Virus record (IMG/VR): IMGVR_UViG_3300032332_000488
Coordinates: 1-34,185 of that record
Source of the DNA: a virus
Taxonomy: Duplodnaviria > Caudoviricetes
DNA length: 34,185 nt
Reading direction: 5' to 3' (one strand)
Every line of letters starts with the position of its first letter. The first letter of the stretch is position 1. Both the position numbers and the translations under genes were made by a program. Shown in pieces: positions 13,194 through 32,161 of this stretch. The notes beneath the pieces are model-generated. The model was given only the letters and a program-made list of their open reading frames with translations. It searched no databases and was not told the DNA's origin.

Positions 13194-13228
13194 CTAACCC
13201 TCTATACAGATAACGCTATATTACAGAC

Positions 13229-13257
13229 AAAAAAAGAGCTACGCAAGTGGTAGCTCT
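13229..13257 (-). terminator. Rho-independent terminator
   Basis: Minus strand AGAGCTAC-7 nt loop-GTAGCTCT followed by a T run. Confidence 0.75.
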
Positions 13258-13349
13258 AAGTTCTAGAAGAACGATGACAAACACGGCTGGGGACTGTTTG
13301 CGGAACTACTGTCTAGACGGTAGCCAATCCCCATGCGTGTTAGCACATG
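13229..13349 (-). ncRNA. Candidate free-standing small RNA with CI/C4-like junction fold
   Basis: AACACG-CA-TGGGGATTG ... CAGTCCCCA-GC-CGTGTT stalk enclosing a hairpin and single-stranded TTCCGCAAA; bounded by an extended -10 and a terminator. Confidence 0.6.
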
Positions 13350-13355
13350 CCAGCT

Positions 13356-13364
13356 ATCCTACCA
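13356..13364 (-). promoter_or_regulatory. Extended -10 promoter for the candidate sRNA
   Basis: Minus strand TG-G-TAGGAT about 14 nt upstream of the stalk. Confidence 0.4.
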
Positions 13365-13370
13365 GAAACC

Positions 13371-13700
13371 ATATTTTTTTTGGGGGGGACGAGATGTGGG
13401 GTGCTCACCTCACCAGACTCCGTAACCCATCGCTCAGGCCACGGCGCTGCTTGTGCTTGTGCTTGTGCGGTAGTTGTCCCGACCCAACCCGATAACGTGC
13501 ATGGTAGCGCACTAGGTGCATGGTACTGGTGCGGTAAAGCATACCCCATGCCAAACCCCATGTAATTCCCGGTGGGCGGTAGGTGATAAACCCTTGTCGA
13601 ATCAATAAACCCGAACTCAGGATACATTACAGAACTATAAGACAATAAATTATAAAGACAATAAACATAGTAGTCTTATATATATTATATACCCTACTGT
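13371..13700. repeat. Divergent intergenic region with short repeats and AT-rich tract (candidate origin or packaging/terminus region)
   Basis: T8G7 at 13374-13388; (GCTTGT)x3 at 13449-13466; GTGCATGGTA x2 (13497, 13516); ACCCCATG x2 (13543, 13555); AAGACAATAAA x2 (13639, 13655); TA tract 13677-13691. Confidence 0.55.
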
Positions 13701-15877: not shown

Positions 15878-16479
15878 GGGTATTGGTTGCCTGTGAATAC
15901 TCTGGCACTGTCAGGGATGCCTTCATTCGTGCTGGGCACTATGCGGCATCCTGTGACATATTGCCCTCTGAATCGCCCCTGGGTGACCACTATCAATGCA
16001 GTGTGCTGGACATACTAGACCATGATTGGGATTTGATGATTGCTCACCCACCATGCACTCACCTGGCAGTATCAGGGGTTAGATGGTTTAAGGATAAACA
16101 ACAAGAGCAGCAACAAGCCTTAGAGTTTGTCCGTCAGCTACTGAATGCCCCTATATCCCACATTGCATTGGAAAACCCTGTCAGCATCATTTCAAGCCAC
16201 ATTAGAAAGCCTGACCAAATTATTCAGCCTTGGATGTTTGGACATGAAGCAACAAAGACAACCTGCCTGTGGCTTAAAGGTTTGCCCCATTTGATTCCCA
16301 CAAATGTAGTAAACAAAGGGGATAGACACATAACCAAAAGTGGCAAGAGTTTGCCATCATGGTACAACTTGCCCCCAAGTGCTGACCGATGGAAGATTCG
16401 TAGCGCAACCTTCAAAGGCATTGCAAATGCTATGGCTGAACAATGGGGTATTGACAGCCCCCAAAAAGGTTTGATATGA
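15874..16479 (+). CDS. DNA cytosine methyltransferase-like protein
   Basis: MRVLVACEYSG (motif I-like), DLMIAHPPCT (catalytic PC), IALENP. Confidence 0.75.
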   Translation: MRVLVACEYSGTVRDAFIRAGHYAASCDILPSESPLGDHYQCSVLDILDHDWDLMIAHPPCTHLAVSGVRWFKDKQQEQQQALEFVRQLLNAPISHIALENPVSIISSHIRKPDQIIQPWMFGHEATKTTCLWLKGLPHLIPTNVVNKGDRHITKSGKSLPSWYNLPPSADRWKIRSATFKGIANAMAEQWGIDSPQKGLI

Positions 16480-16480
16480 T
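16451..16480 (+). promoter_or_regulatory. Sigma70-like promoter driving the structured RNA region
   Basis: TTGACA-N18-TATGAT with an extended -10 TG. Confidence 0.7.
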
Positions 16481-16487
16481 TTCCCCC

Positions 16488-16578
16488 GTTGTCGTCGTAG
16501 TCAACACCATGAAGCCGTTTACACATGCCTCGCCCCGTTATGGGGAACTACGACGGGGCAGTTGTAAGCGGCTTTTTT
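16488..16578 (+). ncRNA. CI/C4-like antisense/attenuator RNA with upstream target hairpin
   Basis: Hairpin loop CGTCGTAGT (16493-16501) is complementary to ACTACGACG (16547-16555) in a fold with a 12-bp stalk, CA/GT internal loop, 7-bp stem, side hairpin and terminal T run. Confidence 0.7.
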
Positions 16579-16595
16579 GTTGCCCCAACTACATC

Positions 16596-16824
16596 CGTAC
16601 CCCATACGTTAACAAGCACCTACATGGGTGGCGTGGGAGAGAACATAGGGCAGCGTTACACCCCGCTGATAACCCTCGCAGACTGTGTGCGTGGTACTGC
16701 AAAAGACAGGGGGACATGGTGAGACAAGACCCCTATCGAATGAAACGCACCCTCAAGGGGAAGCTGGCGGGCATAGCCCGTGGGCTTAAGGGAGAGGCTT
16801 CTCACCCTTGGGGAACCTATGCCT
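16596..16824 (+). ncRNA. Hairpin-dense non-coding tract (candidate structured RNA or origin)
   Basis: At least seven consecutive stem-loops and no convincing ORF. Confidence 0.5.
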
Positions 16825-16839
16825 GAAAGGAACTGACCC

Positions 16840-17034
16840 ATGAACGTACAGCAAGCTCAGAGAATACTAGCCCGACACAAAGAGGGTGATGTTTACCCCC
16901 AATGGGTAATCAACACAGCCCTATACATCACAGGAGACATTGATGAAATGCCCACTATGCCAAGCCCCCACAGAGGTGGTGACCAGCAGACTGAGACAAG
17001 CAAACTACATTTACCGCCGGAGGATATGTTTTAA
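16840..17034 (+). CDS. Hypothetical protein
   Basis: SD AAGGA; IN.AL..TGD motif; 3' part overlaps the next gene. Confidence 0.6.
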   Translation: MNVQQAQRILARHKEGDVYPQWVINTALYITGDIDEMPTMPSPHRGGDQQTETSKLHLPPEDMF

Positions 17035-17122
17035 CCAACATTACTTCTCCACCCAGGAGATAGCAGTAACAGCCCCTAGCCCCAAACTCAAGAGAGGAAG
17101 ACCCCGCAATGAAAGACCCTAA
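16943..17122 (+). CDS. Zinc-ribbon protein (NrdR N-terminal/Ogr-like), putative transcription regulator
   Basis: MKCPLC..PT.V..SR.......RRRIC...H.FST.E; C-terminal KRGRPR AT-hook-like; SD AGGAG. Confidence 0.7.
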   Translation: MKCPLCQAPTEVVTSRLRQANYIYRRRICFNQHYFSTQEIAVTAPSPKLKRGRPRNERP

Positions 17123-17315
17123 CGATTGCACCTATCCCCACACAAACCTATGTCTGCATGATTGTGTAGGGGGTTGCGCCAAGCGTAGCCCCCAGCGTAG
17201 CGGCTGGCGCAAGTTGCAGATAGAGGACGCAGAAGAAGAAGCATGGAGGGAGTTAACCAACAAACAAGGTTCTCTCCCCAGCTACCAAGAGTGGACTAAG
17301 AAGGAGAACACATGA
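17109..17315 (+). CDS. Cys-rich hypothetical protein
   Basis: 68 aa; SD GAGGA. Confidence 0.6.
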   Translation: MKDPNDCTYPHTNLCLHDCVGGCAKRSPQRSGWRKLQIEDAEEEAWRELTNKQGSLPSYQEWTKKENT

Positions 17316-17464
17316 AAGCAAGACAAGTTTTTATCGCCCTGATGATGGGCAAGGGATACACAGTGGAGGAGCTGGCCTGGGAAGGCAGGAAGTTCTCTAA
17401 CCCCGCTATCACTACCCGCTGGAACTATTTCCTCATGGGCTGGGAAATGAGAGGCACACAGTGA
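17312..17464 (+). CDS. Hypothetical protein (50 aa)
   Basis: MKARQVFIALMMGKGY...RWNYFLMGWEMRGTQ; SD AAGGAG; ATGA overlap. Confidence 0.7.
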   Translation: MKARQVFIALMMGKGYTVEELAWEGRKFSNPAITTRWNYFLMGWEMRGTQ

Positions 17465-17529
17465 ACCTACGCAAACTCAGACTACGACACCACACATTGT
17501 TTGAACACAGAGACAGGAGGGTAAACACC

Positions 17530-17558
17530 TACACACACTAACCAAATAACTGTATAAT
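17530..17558 (+). promoter_or_regulatory. Promoter for the recombination module
   Basis: TACACA-N17-TATAAT in an intergenic gap. Confidence 0.5.
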
Positions 17559-17592
17559 TTAATCTCACCCTAACCTTAAAAGGAAGTTCCAA

Positions 17593-17808
17593 ATGAAATT
17601 CTGTATTGATTGCAAACATTTTGCGATGGAGAAGCACTCCATCAACCCTGAGGTTGGCAGATGCACCGTCATACGTGCCACAAGCCTTGTAACGGGGCTT
17701 ATCGTGCCTCTTGATACATTGCCCTTCTGCGCCATACAACGCTGCTCTACCAAGCCCTGCGGCCCTGATGCAAATCTGTTTGAAGAGAAGGAGGCCAGCA
17801 ATGTCTGA
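17593..17808 (+). CDS. Cys-rich small protein
   Basis: MKFCIDCKHF...C...C...R....CGPDA.LFE; SD AAGGA. Confidence 0.7.
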   Translation: MKFCIDCKHFAMEKHSINPEVGRCTVIRATSLVTGLIVPLDTLPFCAIQRCSTKPCGPDANLFEEKEASNV

Positions 17809-18694
17809 CTTCAGCCCTGAAACAAGAAACTCAGCATGGTGGTCAGGAGACAGTCGCCGTGCTGCCAGTGGCAAAGCCAACGAGGTCATACTCACAAAGC
17901 AGGGCAAGATGGAGATTCCAGACCTGTCCGGCATAGAAGCTGTGCAGATGGGACACGTGATGGAGCCTGTCATCGCAAGCCTAGCCAGCGAGAAACTGGG
18001 TGTGCGGCTGGAGAAGATTGAGGAAGCTCTCACGCACCCTAAACATCCTTGGCTGAAATCACACTTTGACTACCACGGGAAACTCAATGGCGAAACTATC
18101 TTGGTTGAGTGTAAAAATTACAACGCTGCGGTTAGAAATAAGTTTGATGAAAGCGGCCTCATCCCTGCTGCTGACATGGCTCAGATTGTCCACGAAGCGG
18201 CGGTATACGGCGTACGGAAAATTTATCTGGCTGTGCTATTTGGTGGTCAAGAGTTTGTCCTTATTCCGTTTGAAATCACTGACGAGCAAAAAGAAGAACT
18301 TATCAAGCAGATGGCGGTCTACTGGGGGCACTGCCAAGCAGGAACTCAGCTACCGCCAGAGACTCCTGAACAGGCAAGACTGATATACCCCACAGGGCTG
18401 GACAACACCAAGATGGCCTCCAGGAGCGTAGAAGAGGCTTGCCGCACCCTTGCTATTGTCAAGGGTCAGATAAAGGCTCTAGAGGCCCAGGAAGCGGCTC
18501 TGATGACCCTTGTGCAAGGTTACATGGGGGAATGCAACCAACTCGCTACTTTTGACGGCTCTGTGCTGGCAACCTGGAAGAACGCTAAACACAGTGAGAA
18601 GTTTGACAGCAAGCTGTTTCAGTCTGCCATGCCGGATGTGTACGAGAAGTTTGTGGTCAACGTGCCGGGTTCACGGAGGTTCTTAGTCAAATGA
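17801..18694 (+). CDS. YqaJ-like (lambda-exonuclease family) nuclease
   Basis: GHVMEPVI, HPWLKSHFD, LVECKN and Q..H motifs; start at ATG 17801 behind AAGGAGG. Confidence 0.85.
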   Translation: MSDFSPETRNSAWWSGDSRRAASGKANEVILTKQGKMEIPDLSGIEAVQMGHVMEPVIASLASEKLGVRLEKIEEALTHPKHPWLKSHFDYHGKLNGETILVECKNYNAAVRNKFDESGLIPAADMAQIVHEAAVYGVRKIYLAVLFGGQEFVLIPFEITDEQKEELIKQMAVYWGHCQAGTQLPPETPEQARLIYPTGLDNTKMASRSVEEACRTLAIVKGQIKALEAQEAALMTLVQGYMGECNQLATFDGSVLATWKNAKHSEKFDSKLFQSAMPDVYEKFVVNVPGSRRFLVK

Positions 18695-18888
18695 AAGCCT
18701 ATCCCTTCATTCACAAGCACCCCACCACTGGCAACACCACGATGGCAGAGGGCGCTGACTTGCGTGACATATTTGCTGGTCTTGCCATGCAAAAACTTAT
18801 GGGGTCAGCCGATGTTGATGACTGCTGTAAGTCTGCTTTTATGTGGGCAGACGCAATGATGAAGGCCAGGGAGGTCAAGCATGACTAA
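18691..18888 (+). CDS. Conserved small phage protein (LRD.FAG.AMQ...ADAMM.AR type)
   Basis: Recognisable motif; ATGA overlap. Confidence 0.75.
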   Translation: MKAYPFIHKHPTTGNTTMAEGADLRDIFAGLAMQKLMGSADVDDCCKSAFMWADAMMKAREVKHD

Positions 18889-18961
18889 CTGGAGCATCTA
18901 CGTCATGGCCTTTTGTTCCCTGATTGAACTAACCATAACTGTATTGGAAAAACTACTATGA
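18881..18961 (+). CDS. 26-aa hydrophobic peptide
   Basis: SD GGAGG; MTNWSIYVMAFCSLIELTITVLEKLL; stop overlaps the HNH start (ATGA). Confidence 0.5.
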   Translation: MTNWSIYVMAFCSLIELTITVLEKLL

Positions 18962-19377
18962 AAGATATTGTTGGATATGAAGGGCTGTACGCAGTCACTG
19001 AAGATGGGATGGTGTGGGCTTACCCGAATAGGATTCACAAAGGAAAATTCCTAAAACCGTCTTTGAAAAAAGGTTATCCGTTTGTTTGTTTGTGTAAGGG
19101 TTCAGAGATAAAGCAATTTTCGATTCACCGTTTGGTTGCCGAAGCCTACTTGCCTAATTTTGACTCTTTGCCTCAAGTCAATCACATTGATAGCAACAAA
19201 GAAAACAACCATGTTTCTAACCTTGAATGGTGTAGCGCCAGCCAAAACAAAAAACATTCTTGGGATTCTGGAACATCATTTGTTACCCCAGCAAAAAGAG
19301 AGGCATCTCGCCGTAACGCTTACATAGCACACAACACCTGGAGAAATAAACATGAGCAACATCGTAGCGGTATCTGA
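18958..19377 (+). CDS. HNH homing endonuclease (NUMOD4-like N-terminus)
   Basis: KDIVGYEGLYAV, HRLVAEAY, VNHIDSNKENNHVSNLEW. Confidence 0.9.
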   Translation: MKDIVGYEGLYAVTEDGMVWAYPNRIHKGKFLKPSLKKGYPFVCLCKGSEIKQFSIHRLVAEAYLPNFDSLPQVNHIDSNKENNHVSNLEWCSASQNKKHSWDSGTSFVTPAKREASRRNAYIAHNTWRNKHEQHRSGI

Positions 19378-20206
19378 TATGCAGGTGATGGCAGAGTCCA
19401 TCGTTAAATCAAACTTCTATGGTTTCAAAACCAAAGAGCAAGTCATGGCTGTCATGCTTGTCGCACAAGCAGAAGGCAAACATCCTGCTACTGTTGTGCA
19501 AGAGTACGACATTATTCAGGGCAGACCAGCGTTGAAATCACAGGCTTTGCTTGCAAGATTTCAAATGGCTGGTGGCAAAGTGGAATGGCAAGAAGTATCT
19601 GCCAAGCGATGCTGCGGCACTTTTTCACATCCTCTGGGCGGCAGTCTCACGATTGAGTGGACGATTGAAATGGCAAGGCAAGCTGGTCTTGTTCGGGATA
19701 ATTCTGGATGGACTAAGTTTCCTGAAGACATGCTCTCTGCCAGGGTCATCAGTCGTGCTGTCCGCAAGGTTTACCCTGGTTGCATCTTGGGTCACTACGC
19801 AGTAGAAGAGGTCATGGATTTTGAGCCTCGCAAACCATTAAACATGGGGCCTGTAGAGCGAGTGGAAGAAGTGCAGGCAGAAGAAGTTGTGGCAGATGGG
19901 GCATATCACCTCTTCATTCCAGGCAACGACAAGCCGTATGCCAGCTACCACACCACAGACGAATGGATAGAGGGTTACTGCTTGATGGTTAACCGCATCT
20001 CTGTGTCACCTAAATTCTCTGATGCTGAGAAGACTGAGAAGCTGGACTTGTTGAAGCAGTCAAACTTACCCATCACCGCTGAGTTTGACGCATACACAAA
20101 CATCAAGCTGAAAGGCGAGATTGTCAAAGCTGGTGGGAGCATCACTCCCCCAAAGCCAGAACCCCTGCCACCAACAGGTTCGGAACTCAACGAGCCAATA
20201 TTTTGA
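19352..20206 (+). CDS. RecT/Bet-like single-strand annealing protein
   Basis: IIQGRPAL, W.K.PEDML.AR.ISRAVR..YP; partner of the YqaJ nuclease. Confidence 0.75.
   Translation: MSNIVAVSDMQVMAESIVKSNFYGFKTKEQVMAVMLVAQAEGKHPATVVQEYDIIQGRPALKSQALLARFQMAGGKVEWQEVSAKRCCGTFSHPLGGSLTIEWTIEMARQAGLVRDNSGWTKFPEDMLSARVISRAVRKVYPGCILGHYAVEEVMDFEPRKPLNMGPVERVEEVQAEEVVADGAYHLFIPGNDKPYASYHTTDEWIEGYCLMVNRISVSPKFSDAEKTEKLDLLKQSNLPITAEFDAYTNIKLKGEIVKAGGSITPPKPEPLPPTGSELNEPIF
20135..20181 (+). promoter_or_regulatory. Candidate -1 programmed ribosomal frameshift signal
   Basis: Internal SD-like GGGAG (20135-20139), in-frame heptamer C CCA AAG (20149-20155), 3' stem-loop 20159-20181. Confidence 0.55.
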
Positions 20207-30457: not shown

Positions 30458-32161
30458 TTACAGTCCTAGCGCATCTTTAAGACGCAGTGATTCCTCGTTC
30501 CACACATTCTGGCGAGGCTTACCCGATTTCTTACCCTCAATTTCACCCGCTCCACGGTATCCTGTCAATGCCTGTCCCAGAGTGGTAGAAGGGTAAAACG
30601 GAGCCTGTAGTGTAGTGCCCAACTGGGTGGTTTGTCGCCCAGGAGTCTTAGGAGACTTGCCACCATAAATAAATAAATCAGGTCTATAACCATCTTCTTT
30701 TTTAGGAGTCGGTTCTTCTTCATCACCCGCTTTAGTACCGCCGCCTACAGTGCCTGTGCCGCCTGTACCAGCACCAGTACCATCACCTGTTCCAGCGCCA
30801 ACCCCAGGAGTTCCACCACCACCACCACCTGCACCACCAATCAAGGCAGAAATTTGTTGGTCACCAGTTCCATAGCCAGGACGTTCTATAACCCCTCCAC
30901 CGGGCAAACCTGAAATAACAGCAGGTGCAGCACCACCAGCTCTTTTTGCATCTATTGCTGCTTTTCCAGAAACCGCACCAGTAGAAGCATTGCCTGTAGA
31001 TTTGTCGCTAATGATGACAAGGTTTTGACCTGGGCCACCACTGCTAGGTTTTCCTTCAGTATCAAATGTTGGACGTTTTGTGGTTGCGGTTACACCAGCG
31101 CCTCCAGTTGGGTCTACCAAACTTCCATCAGGGCCAGCAACATATCCTGTTTCATAATATATTTGCTTTCCTTGTGGCGCTCCAGGGTCATAGGTAACAA
31201 CATACCCATATGGTTTTCCATCTGGAGTAACACCAGTAATAGAACGTTTATATGTAGTTATTCCCTCTTCTGTTACTGGAGATATAGGACTTGCTTTTTC
31301 ACCTTCTTTGCCTAGCAATTCAGGTATTGCAGAAATACGTGCAAGCTCTAGCGTGGCGGCATCATCGCCTCCGGCAACCTTAACCCCTGGGTCTGCGCCA
31401 GGAGCAGATGGTTTTGTTTTGTCATCTCCAGAGGAAATTGCTGCTCCAACAGCACCAGCCGCACCTGTAAGCGCCCCTGAAACACCACCAGATACAGCTC
31501 CACCAGCGGTACGTGCAGCTATATTACTGCCAGTGGCAGAGCCAATAGAAGAACCAACAATTGCTGCTTTTGCATTTCTAATTGCATCAGCTTCATTTCC
31601 ACCTGTTGCAGCCGTCTGAACTATAGAAGCTCCAGTAGACGCAATAAGATTTGTAACCGCTGGAATTCCAACAAGTTCATTTATTTTTTGTGCAACAGCA
31701 GGTGAGCCTGTTTGCACACCCGCAGTAACAAGTGCATCTGTTACCGCTTTGTCTGCTGGAACACCTCGAGAAATTGCAGTTCCCGCATTTGCTAATGCAG
31801 TACCAACAGTTGTGGCCTGTGCGGTTGCAGCCGCTGCCGCAGCACTTGCTTGGGCAGCAGTTGCTCCAGATGCGGTTGCGGCGGCAGAGGCTTCTGCTGC
31901 GGTAGTCATTAAACCAGATTCCATCAATAAAGCGCCAATTTCTGCACCAACAATAGGAATAGCAACAGCTAACCAAACAGGGGCAATATCCGCAAGGCCC
32001 CTAGCTTGTAGTCCACCAAAGTAACCGCCTCCAACAGCAGACTGACCAAAAACTCTTGAGGAAATTCTTTTTTGGTCTTCAGGAGGCAATATTTCTATTG
32101 GCAAAGCGCCACCAGATGCAACAGGTACAGGGCCAGCCGGGGTTATTTCTTCAATATACAT
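30458..32161 (-). CDS. Gly/Ala-rich internal virion (pilot-like) protein
   Basis: 567 aa with long Ala/Gly tracts; first gene of the ejection-protein cluster. Confidence 0.55.
   Translation of the reverse strand: MYIEEITPAGPVPVASGGALPIEILPPEDQKRISSRVFGQSAVGGGYFGGLQARGLADIAPVWLAVAIPIVGAEIGALLMESGLMTTAAEASAAATASGATAAQASAAAAAATAQATTVGTALANAGTAISRGVPADKAVTDALVTAGVQTGSPAVAQKINELVGIPAVTNLIASTGASIVQTAATGGNEADAIRNAKAAIVGSSIGSATGSNIAARTAGGAVSGGVSGALTGAAGAVGAAISSGDDKTKPSAPGADPGVKVAGGDDAATLELARISAIPELLGKEGEKASPISPVTEEGITTYKRSITGVTPDGKPYGYVVTYDPGAPQGKQIYYETGYVAGPDGSLVDPTGGAGVTATTKRPTFDTEGKPSSGGPGQNLVIISDKSTGNASTGAVSGKAAIDAKRAGGAAPAVISGLPGGGVIERPGYGTGDQQISALIGGAGGGGGGTPGVGAGTGDGTGAGTGGTGTVGGGTKAGDEEEPTPKKEDGYRPDLFIYGGKSPKTPGRQTTQLGTTLQAPFYPSTTLGQALTGYRGAGEIEGKKSGKPRQNVWNEESLRLKDALGL

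Follow-up and report, generated by a model that had tools for sequence, protein, structure and literature searches.

A predicted phage RNA with a constant stalk and a variable strand, possibly directed against the leaders of close relatives

The phage genome analyzed here (IMGVR_UViG_3300032332_000488, a whole virus record of 34,185 bases, called the window below) carries on its minus strand an element, called A, confirmed as a predicted RNA of ~120 nt with a genuine structure. Judged from sequence comparisons, A is one unit of a large, undescribed phage family, made of a constant stalk and a variable cargo. We tentatively regard A as an orphan immunity RNA acting against close relatives, in which it would silence the leader preceding the recombination genes; this reading falls a little short of probable. 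The leader at issue belongs to a second element, B, found in the window at 16.5 kb. By its layout and by the covariation of loop and seed, B appears to be a one-site, C4/CI-like leader-terminator, in which an RNA on the leader would favour termination.

Genome setting

Terminase, portal and capsid genes are annotated on the minus strand, below 13 kb. The early region runs on the plus strand from 13.9 kb, and encodes a clamp-like protein, a methyltransferase, YqaJ/RecE, HNH and RecT. No tRNA was found in the 34-kb genome. In the annotated phage collection, the TerL relatives exceeding 60% identity number two, both uncultured spring phages. Cultured phages searched with element A gave chance-level matches only; in the search of cultured and annotated phages, element B matched one uncultured spring phage. 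Of 37 matches to the stalk pattern in cellular genomes, visual inspection upheld 7 as true stalks. Each of them lies on a contig of ≤5.3 kb from an assembled bin (4 from Burkholderiales, 3 from others). These stalks are probably phage fragments, and provide a weak hint at the host.

Rfam retrieved no C4-family match at E≤1 in the whole window, and A and B both remained unmatched by C4/c4-2 at E≤10, the check suggested by the sequence-only reading of this DNA. A sub-threshold isrG match (27 bits vs 100) at 31821-31900 on the plus strand was rejected as a chance hit to a GC-rich repeat inside a coding region.

Structure of element A

Every part of the layout drawn for A in the sequence-only reading could be located on the minus strand (Table 1). 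The whole unit folds with a z score of -4.55, a value reached by 0/200 shuffles. The stalk domain has a z score of -3.43 (2/200 shuffles), its opposite strand of -2.28. A features one side hairpin and one strand. The latter had been described as a 9-mer: 8 nt of it (UCCGCAAA) are unpaired with P≥0.95, and the first U is paired within the side hairpin. A 101-aa ORF (13340-13645), with no PHROG match, overlaps A.

Table 1. Elements A and B and their surroundings in the window
Feature	Position	Strand	Remarks
Conserved anchor (CCAC..C-run then A-run) opening the RNA slot	13374..13407	-	Listed at 37 anchors in relatives
Extended -10 element TGGTAGGAT	13356..13364	-	Predicted promoter, start near 13350
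A, stalk 5' arm: AACACG (13341-13336), CA, TGGGGATTG (13333-13325)	13325..13341	-	Holds the CA half of the 2x2 loop
A, side hairpin, near-palindrome	13305..13324	-	6/8 pairs invariant in A's subfamily
A, exposed single strand UCCGCAAA	13297..13304	-	Varies; leader TTGCGGA of G001/G002 is complementary
A, stalk 3' arm: CAGTCCCCA (13296-13288), GC, CGTGTT (13285-13280)	13280..13296	-	GC half of the 2x2 loop
Intrinsic terminator, stem 13257-13235 plus U tract	13228..13257	-	z -3.68; closes the slot before a 74-aa ORF and the late genes
B, sigma-70-type promoter TTGACA-18-TATGAT	16451..16480	+	11/12 consensus matches
B, leader hairpin	16488..16505	+	Loop target GTCGTAG(T) at 16494-16501
B, RNA: long terminator-type hairpin, CA/GU loop, side hairpin, exposed AACTACGA (16546-16553), U tract	16512..16578	+	z -5.43
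Operon behind B: small ORFs, YqaJ/RecE exonuclease, HNH, RecT	16840..20206	+	Genes that a B leader would gate

Sixteen sequences, chosen from the 22 of the subfamily to which A belongs, were compared. Double changes were found at four stalk pairs (14 cells, 0/500 shuffles); the side hairpin has none, and 6 of its 8 pairs never vary. The stalk thus covaries in relatives, as the sequence-only reading had expected, and the seed, an invariant form of which would have spoken against that reading, comes in 9 different strands. The architecture of A had also been likened to that of the 16.5-kb RNA. A CA/GY-stalk descriptor run on both strands of the 34-kb genome picked two sites, A and B. The view that the strand of A has no nearby partner holds as well: in the own genome TTTGCGGAA has an exact match at A itself only, and one-mismatch sites are 12, vs 8.5 by chance.

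The swappable slot

The stretch from anchor to terminator is a swappable slot, as denoted by the comparison of 80 terminase relatives. Eighty-seven loci were examined; anchor, terminator and downstream ORF are all present in 33, which correspond to 32 distinct slots. Categories of slot content overlap. A short GCAGTTGC RNA is the sole content of 21 distinct slots. The A-type stalk is present in 6, a different recurring RNA in 3 and a Met-type tRNA-like gene in 2; 2 slots are empty. The terminator is kept in relatives regardless of the content. An extended -10 pattern (YGnTAnnnT, variable in the middle letters) occurs in 23/32 distinct slots, vs 18% of shuffles. L700 and L707 have an empty slot, and one contig of run X1 skips it; the slot is therefore dispensable. 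Contigs L042 and L074 start 10 bases ahead of the anchor C-run, and the anchor possibly adjoins a genome end.

The cassette family

The stalk pattern marks at least 120 viral stretches; ~920 are estimated, some of them due to chance. A stricter parse yielded 162 units in 135 loci, 27 of which contain two units. Cargos measure 20–111 nt, and the 143 distinct ones were sorted into 99 clusters. In 142/162 units the stalk is directly followed by the tRNA-acceptor-like sequence GTTGG. This neighbour is absent at the copy in the window, where A is followed by GTTTG and then by the terminator. The 2x2 CA/GC loop is near-invariant in 172 distinct units (C.C in 160, A.G in 162), and the G-C pair at stalk position 8 is switched to A-U in 32 of them. 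A had been called free-standing, which is correct at this locus; elsewhere the same stalk is found in arrays, where units of another kind, with a 7-bp GTTGGTG/CACCAAC closing stem, alternate with it; some of these other units are tRNAs. Three tRNAs only were retrieved by Rfam in 20 array loci.

A further 21 viral loci contain the cargo of A, their strands conforming to TTCC-N-AAA. In this subfamily the hairpin is nearly invariant, the strand variable. Three stalks quite unlike that of A also carry this cargo.

In the literature covered, which includes few subscription papers, and in the accessible part of PMC5737381, neither the cassette nor B nor orphan anti-leader RNAs turned out to be described. 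Stalk words are missing from six supplement files of PMC10690425; three more files lie outside the portion searched, so an unnamed catalogue entry may exist.

Element B and its leader

The sequence-only reading assigned a target in cis to the seed of B, and one upstream leader loop is indeed complementary to the exposed strand. B has one side hairpin, one strand and one upstream target. Of 113 distinct B elements, 92 display in the leader hairpin a 7-mer complemented by the exposed strand of the same RNA, and 25 different 7-mers are involved. The remaining elements include 5 register misses of the pattern and 16 without a simple hairpin form. Wider descriptors raised the loop-seed 7-mers to 35, in 194 loci (duplicated contigs included); 60 targets were obtained from 143 distinct leader RNAs, families with other stalks included. 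In relatives, the genes behind B (31 ORFs chosen from 82) encode RecE, primase/helicase and replication initiators. The CA/GY loop proved not to be obligatory for B: some B elements have AU/GC or other stalks instead.

Variants of the element were noted. A longer B subtype with two leader boxes (L220, L257, L284, L297, L306, L650, L670, L673) is closer to the two-site C4 design. Two further leader-terminator families feature other stalks and a covarying loop and seed, TTGCGCC, TCGCGTC, TCGCACC or TCGTGCC in one (L103, L153, L176, L325, L331), TTGGCGG or TTGGCAG in the other (L126, L352, L366, L718). A 65-codon ORF (16525-16722, plus strand; no Pfam or PHROG match) starts at the AUG in the CA-UG loop of B and crosses the terminator, and resembles the small ORFs overlapping IsrK. 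A RecE-like gene at G001:C1:9281-10249 has one in-frame TAG inside the match.

Kinship of A and B

Stretches of B side hairpins recur in two short cargos, with 19 identical bases in one and 16 in the other, as against ≤13 in five rounds of shuffles; sequence has thus been exchanged between B heads and cassette cargos. The sequence-only reading had proposed to scan phage contigs with a covariance model made from the two copies. A model built on the A subfamily recovered RNAs of the B type, correctly placed and on the correct strand, in 38/52 B loci at E≤1 (14 at E≤0.01), a result partly built in by the preselection of the 52 loci for CAUG/CAG words; the B element of the same genome scored poorly (8.4 bits, E 4.6).

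Match of the A strand to leaders of relatives

The target suggested for A in the sequence-only reading, the leader of a competing phage, was found in part. A match of 7/9 nt is present in two phages, G001 and G002; an exact TTTGCGGAA leader was not found. A scan of the full viral collection for B strands ending in AAC gave 58 matches, among which loci L656 and L662, whose records are G001 and G002, feature the leader GTTGCGGA and the strand TTCCGCAA. The latter is identical to the first 8 nt of the strand of A. The open residues UCCGCAA of A equal the exposed B seed of the two phages, and form 7 bp with their leader. Both are near relatives of the phage carrying A. TerL of G001 is 99% identical, and DNA identity is 91.8% over 5,983 bases for G001 and 92% over 5,969 bases for G002. 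Their slot is filled by an RNA other than A, so those phages would not hit themselves.

In calculations that ignore kissing geometry, the strand of A forms a duplex of -10.9 kcal/mol with the G001/G002 leader vs -2.2 with the own leader, the former ranking best and the latter 120th among 137 distinct leaders. Under the same limit, once opening costs are included the G001 leader scores -3.8 kcal/mol, similar to the -3.2 of the exposed strand of G001 itself, and leaders of the GTGGAAA/G type are better partners (-7.3 to -7.9 kcal/mol, through G.U pairs).

Searching by the ORF located behind B identified 16 loci, 15 of which belong to close relatives (84.5–89.1% identity over aligned parts); 11 show a leader. 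In this close group 8 leader types are found in 12 loci, own phage included, as expected of immunity groups. When the strand of A was compared to 7 of these types (the L705 type was left out), a 7-nt match was reached by 17/5,000 shuffles. The sister strand of L001 (TerL 100% identical) matches the GTGGAAA leader of the close group over 6 nt (147/5,000 shuffles), that of L004 finds at best 5 nt in the group (709/5,000 shuffles). An 8-nt match links cassette L096 to the L153 leader; the two loci have no DNA similarity, and share one protein region with 39% identity.

Extended to the whole class, the same claim fared worse, as the excess of matches is not significant across cassette cargos and strands. 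Anti-leader 7-mers are not enriched in whole cargos (9/143 vs 8.9 shuffled). Cargos combining a hairpin and a strand were tested three times, as the leader catalogue grew. Matches of ≥6 nt were 4/25 with the first catalogue (33/150 shuffles), 8/26 vs 3.5 with the second (7/300 shuffles), 8/27 vs 4.6 with the largest (23/300 shuffles). Matches of ≥7 nt were 1, 1/26 vs 0.75 (154/300 shuffles), and 2/27 vs 1.0 (84/300 shuffles), respectively, and were never significant in the three catalogues. If the TTCC..AAAC frame is kept fixed, a 7-nt match results from 1 of 16 two-base middles. The commonest strand, TTCCCACAAA, found at 12 loci, matches at best 5 nt of any leader; three common B seeds each differ from its 7-mer at a single base. 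Two targeted scans for its partners (leaders GT[CGT]N?GGAA, seeds TTCC[ACG]N?AC, common stalk only) covered 7/64 and 12/64 parts of the collection, and gave 0/120 and 0/121 B elements among the matches listed. Leaders GTTGCGC and GTTCCGG with the common stalk are absent among the 58 matches of the full-collection scan. A metagenome scan for B strands ending in AAAC gave 14 matches, 5 of which are real, all of the long GTTTAGTAG type. The idea that cargos act as decoys, carrying leader loops in sense, was rejected (8/143 vs 11.1 shuffled).

Proposed function and alternative readings

If A is an orphan immunity RNA, the slot promoter would drive the synthesis of a short terminated RNA. The constant stalk would keep the 8-base strand open, and may in addition serve as a stability or processing handle. 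In a cell entered by a relative of the GTTGCGG type, the strand would occupy the loop of the incoming leader, as the B RNA of that phage would, and occupancy would favour termination before the recombination operon of the rival, sparing the carrier. The scheme supposes that B leaders work like P4 seqA/CI, a leader-bound RNA favouring termination, that a 6–7-bp contact made by an orphan RNA may suffice, and that the carrier of A and G001/G002 would share a host. Neither an integrase nor a repressor was recognised among the ORFs of the genome; a resident state that would call for immunity is thus hypothetical, which counts against this reading. Broader still is the notion of a programmable, RNA-guided war, in which the seeds of rivals would be captured and mounted on a universal stalk, either in an array or in a slot between promoter and terminator, heteroimmune competitors would be silenced, and leader loops would diversify to escape; we consider it unlikely.

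A may instead be directed to the host, a reading that we rate as somewhat unlikely: the invariant palindromic hairpin and the CC-N-AAA strand would serve to decoy a protein or to seed pairing with a host mRNA, the G001/G002 match being coincidental. The cargo of A recurs in unrelated phages (G003, G004, G005, G007, G009, G012, G013), which have ≤163 aligned bases in common with the genome of A, and a host target fits this distribution equally well. The side hairpin, conserved in sequence and devoid of double changes, is in keeping with such a target, as is the resemblance, judged by eye, of many other cargos to pseudoknots, T-loop minihelices or tRNAs. So is the absence of a leader for the commonest strand among the matches listed. 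Yet a fixed host target would explain neither the 9 strands of one subfamily, nor why the sole perfect match falls in the nearest relatives. It is also conceivable, if quite improbable, that recombination during co-infection brought in the strand as a copy from a G001-type B RNA, and that no effect of it is under selection, the stalk alone being important for processing or stability. Nine bases are shared, RecET is present, the exchange of sequences between B heads and cargos is documented, the slot is dispensable, and the frequent junction of stalk and GTTGG unit is what a processing mark would produce. After the stalk of A, however, only the terminator follows, with nothing else that needs release, and the cargo hairpin is kept near letter-for-letter across unrelated phages, which argues for selection on the cargo. 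Least credible, and to us very improbable, is that the palindrome acts as DNA, as an operator or a packaging signal beside the genome end. An 18-bp near-perfect palindrome does lie beside the conserved C-run/A-run anchor. Against this, G.U pairs exceed A.C on the given strand of cassette units, 209 vs 7 (142 come from one consensus position, and the filter scored G.U as a pair), the same cargo is found in RNA arrays far from such an anchor, and the slot often holds other RNAs or nothing.

Relation to known systems

According to the accessible part of PMC4825925, the CI RNA of P4 pairs with seqA and seqC and causes termination before the replication genes. B resembles both this system and the IsrK/SeqA-like locus of Gifsy-1 dealt with in the same part of the source, having an upstream leader complementary to an RNA of one and the same transcript, a terminator, and replication or recombination genes behind. 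CI has two targets there and acts on its own phage, B has one target. A displays a strand like that of B, and in this resembles CI. Unlike CI, it is equipped with a promoter and a terminator of its own, lacks a target in the genome that carries it, and finds its match in other phages only.

The c4 antisense RNA underlies the heteroimmunity of P1 and P7 and blocks translation of the antirepressor, in the accessible part of PMC12197685. Exposed strands of c4 (RF01695) pair with short leader loops and set heteroimmunity, a trait recalling A and B. Two loops of the c4-a1b1 alignment in the accessible part of PMC2864571, GUGGAAG and GUGGUAA, occur among B leaders. The c4 rows of that alignment feature two side hairpins and two target sites, A and B one side hairpin each. 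The targets of c4 flank the RNA in its own operon, whereas the genome of A offers it no target and B has a single one, upstream. No antirepressor was recognised among the ORFs of the A genome. Neither A nor B is a member of C4/c4-2, as both lack a model match and the anatomy with two hairpins and two targets.

Phage RNAs which restrict another phage are known, and A would be similar in this respect to STnc6030 and svsR (PMC12803456, accessible part). STnc6030 of BTP1 is described, in the accessible part of PMC12197685, as a long antisense RNA made in cis to the tailspike gene of the same phage, and limits superinfection. In the parts of these sources at hand, neither RNA appears as an orphan copy of a rival seed on a swappable stalk, unlike A.

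The early RNA of T7 carries stalks processed by RNase III, and stable RNAs are encoded in phage tRNA clusters. The cassettes resemble both in having a constant stalk of ~18 bp, with an internal loop, between RNA units. The interiors of cassettes differ in being conserved recurring modules, not free loops, and a role for RNase III here is putative.

RNAs of the C4/CI type protect a phage against its own immunity group, as far as the accessible parts of the sources go. An orphan RNA with the seed of a rival would extend this protection to offensive, or heterologous, exclusion. If true, this would for the first time assign a concrete function, open to testing, to a cassette family of ~900 viral stretches with otherwise unexplained cargos; if general, it would amount to a protein-free, CRISPR-like collection of guides between phages. 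A, the fitting G001 leader and the non-fitting own leader form a matched test set. B leaders, with at least 35 covarying loop-seed types, provide a natural library of candidate orthogonal RNA switches.

Additional elements in slots and arrays

In 22/32 distinct slots, as in L005, L007, L042 and L044, the GCAGTTGC(C) motif either directly follows the slot promoter or occupies a hairpin loop, and a U tract follows GCAGTTGCC in 32/56 contexts. From its placement the motif looks like the seed of a separate tiny sRNA; the carrier of A is without it. The Met-type (CAT) tRNA-like gene, found at L011:4290-4365 and L014:7917-7995, features an odd D-arm, and its CCA in L011 coincides with the first three bases of an A-type stalk. 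The G001/G002 slot houses a recurring RNA, also found in L001, L081, L083, L090, L103, L114 and L126, which ends in the single strand A(A/T)TCCTCAC. It resides on two different stalks, and resembles the anti-Shine-Dalgarno sequence.

In the arrays, 94 sequences were called as units of the GTTGGTG/CACCAAC-A type (L083, L096, L097, L102, L127, L131), some of them falsely; the closing stem of this type resembles a tRNA acceptor. Modules are common to both unit types, as the GGTTAGCGCC hairpin with ACACTGCTTTATGTGAGC. H-type pseudoknots with covarying stems were recognised by eye in cargos L082/L159, L122/L142/L164 and L143/L176/L192, and T-loop minihelices, again by eye, in those of L091, L099, L105, L108 and L168. 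Both sorts of cargo are candidate protein-binding decoys or antitoxin mimics.
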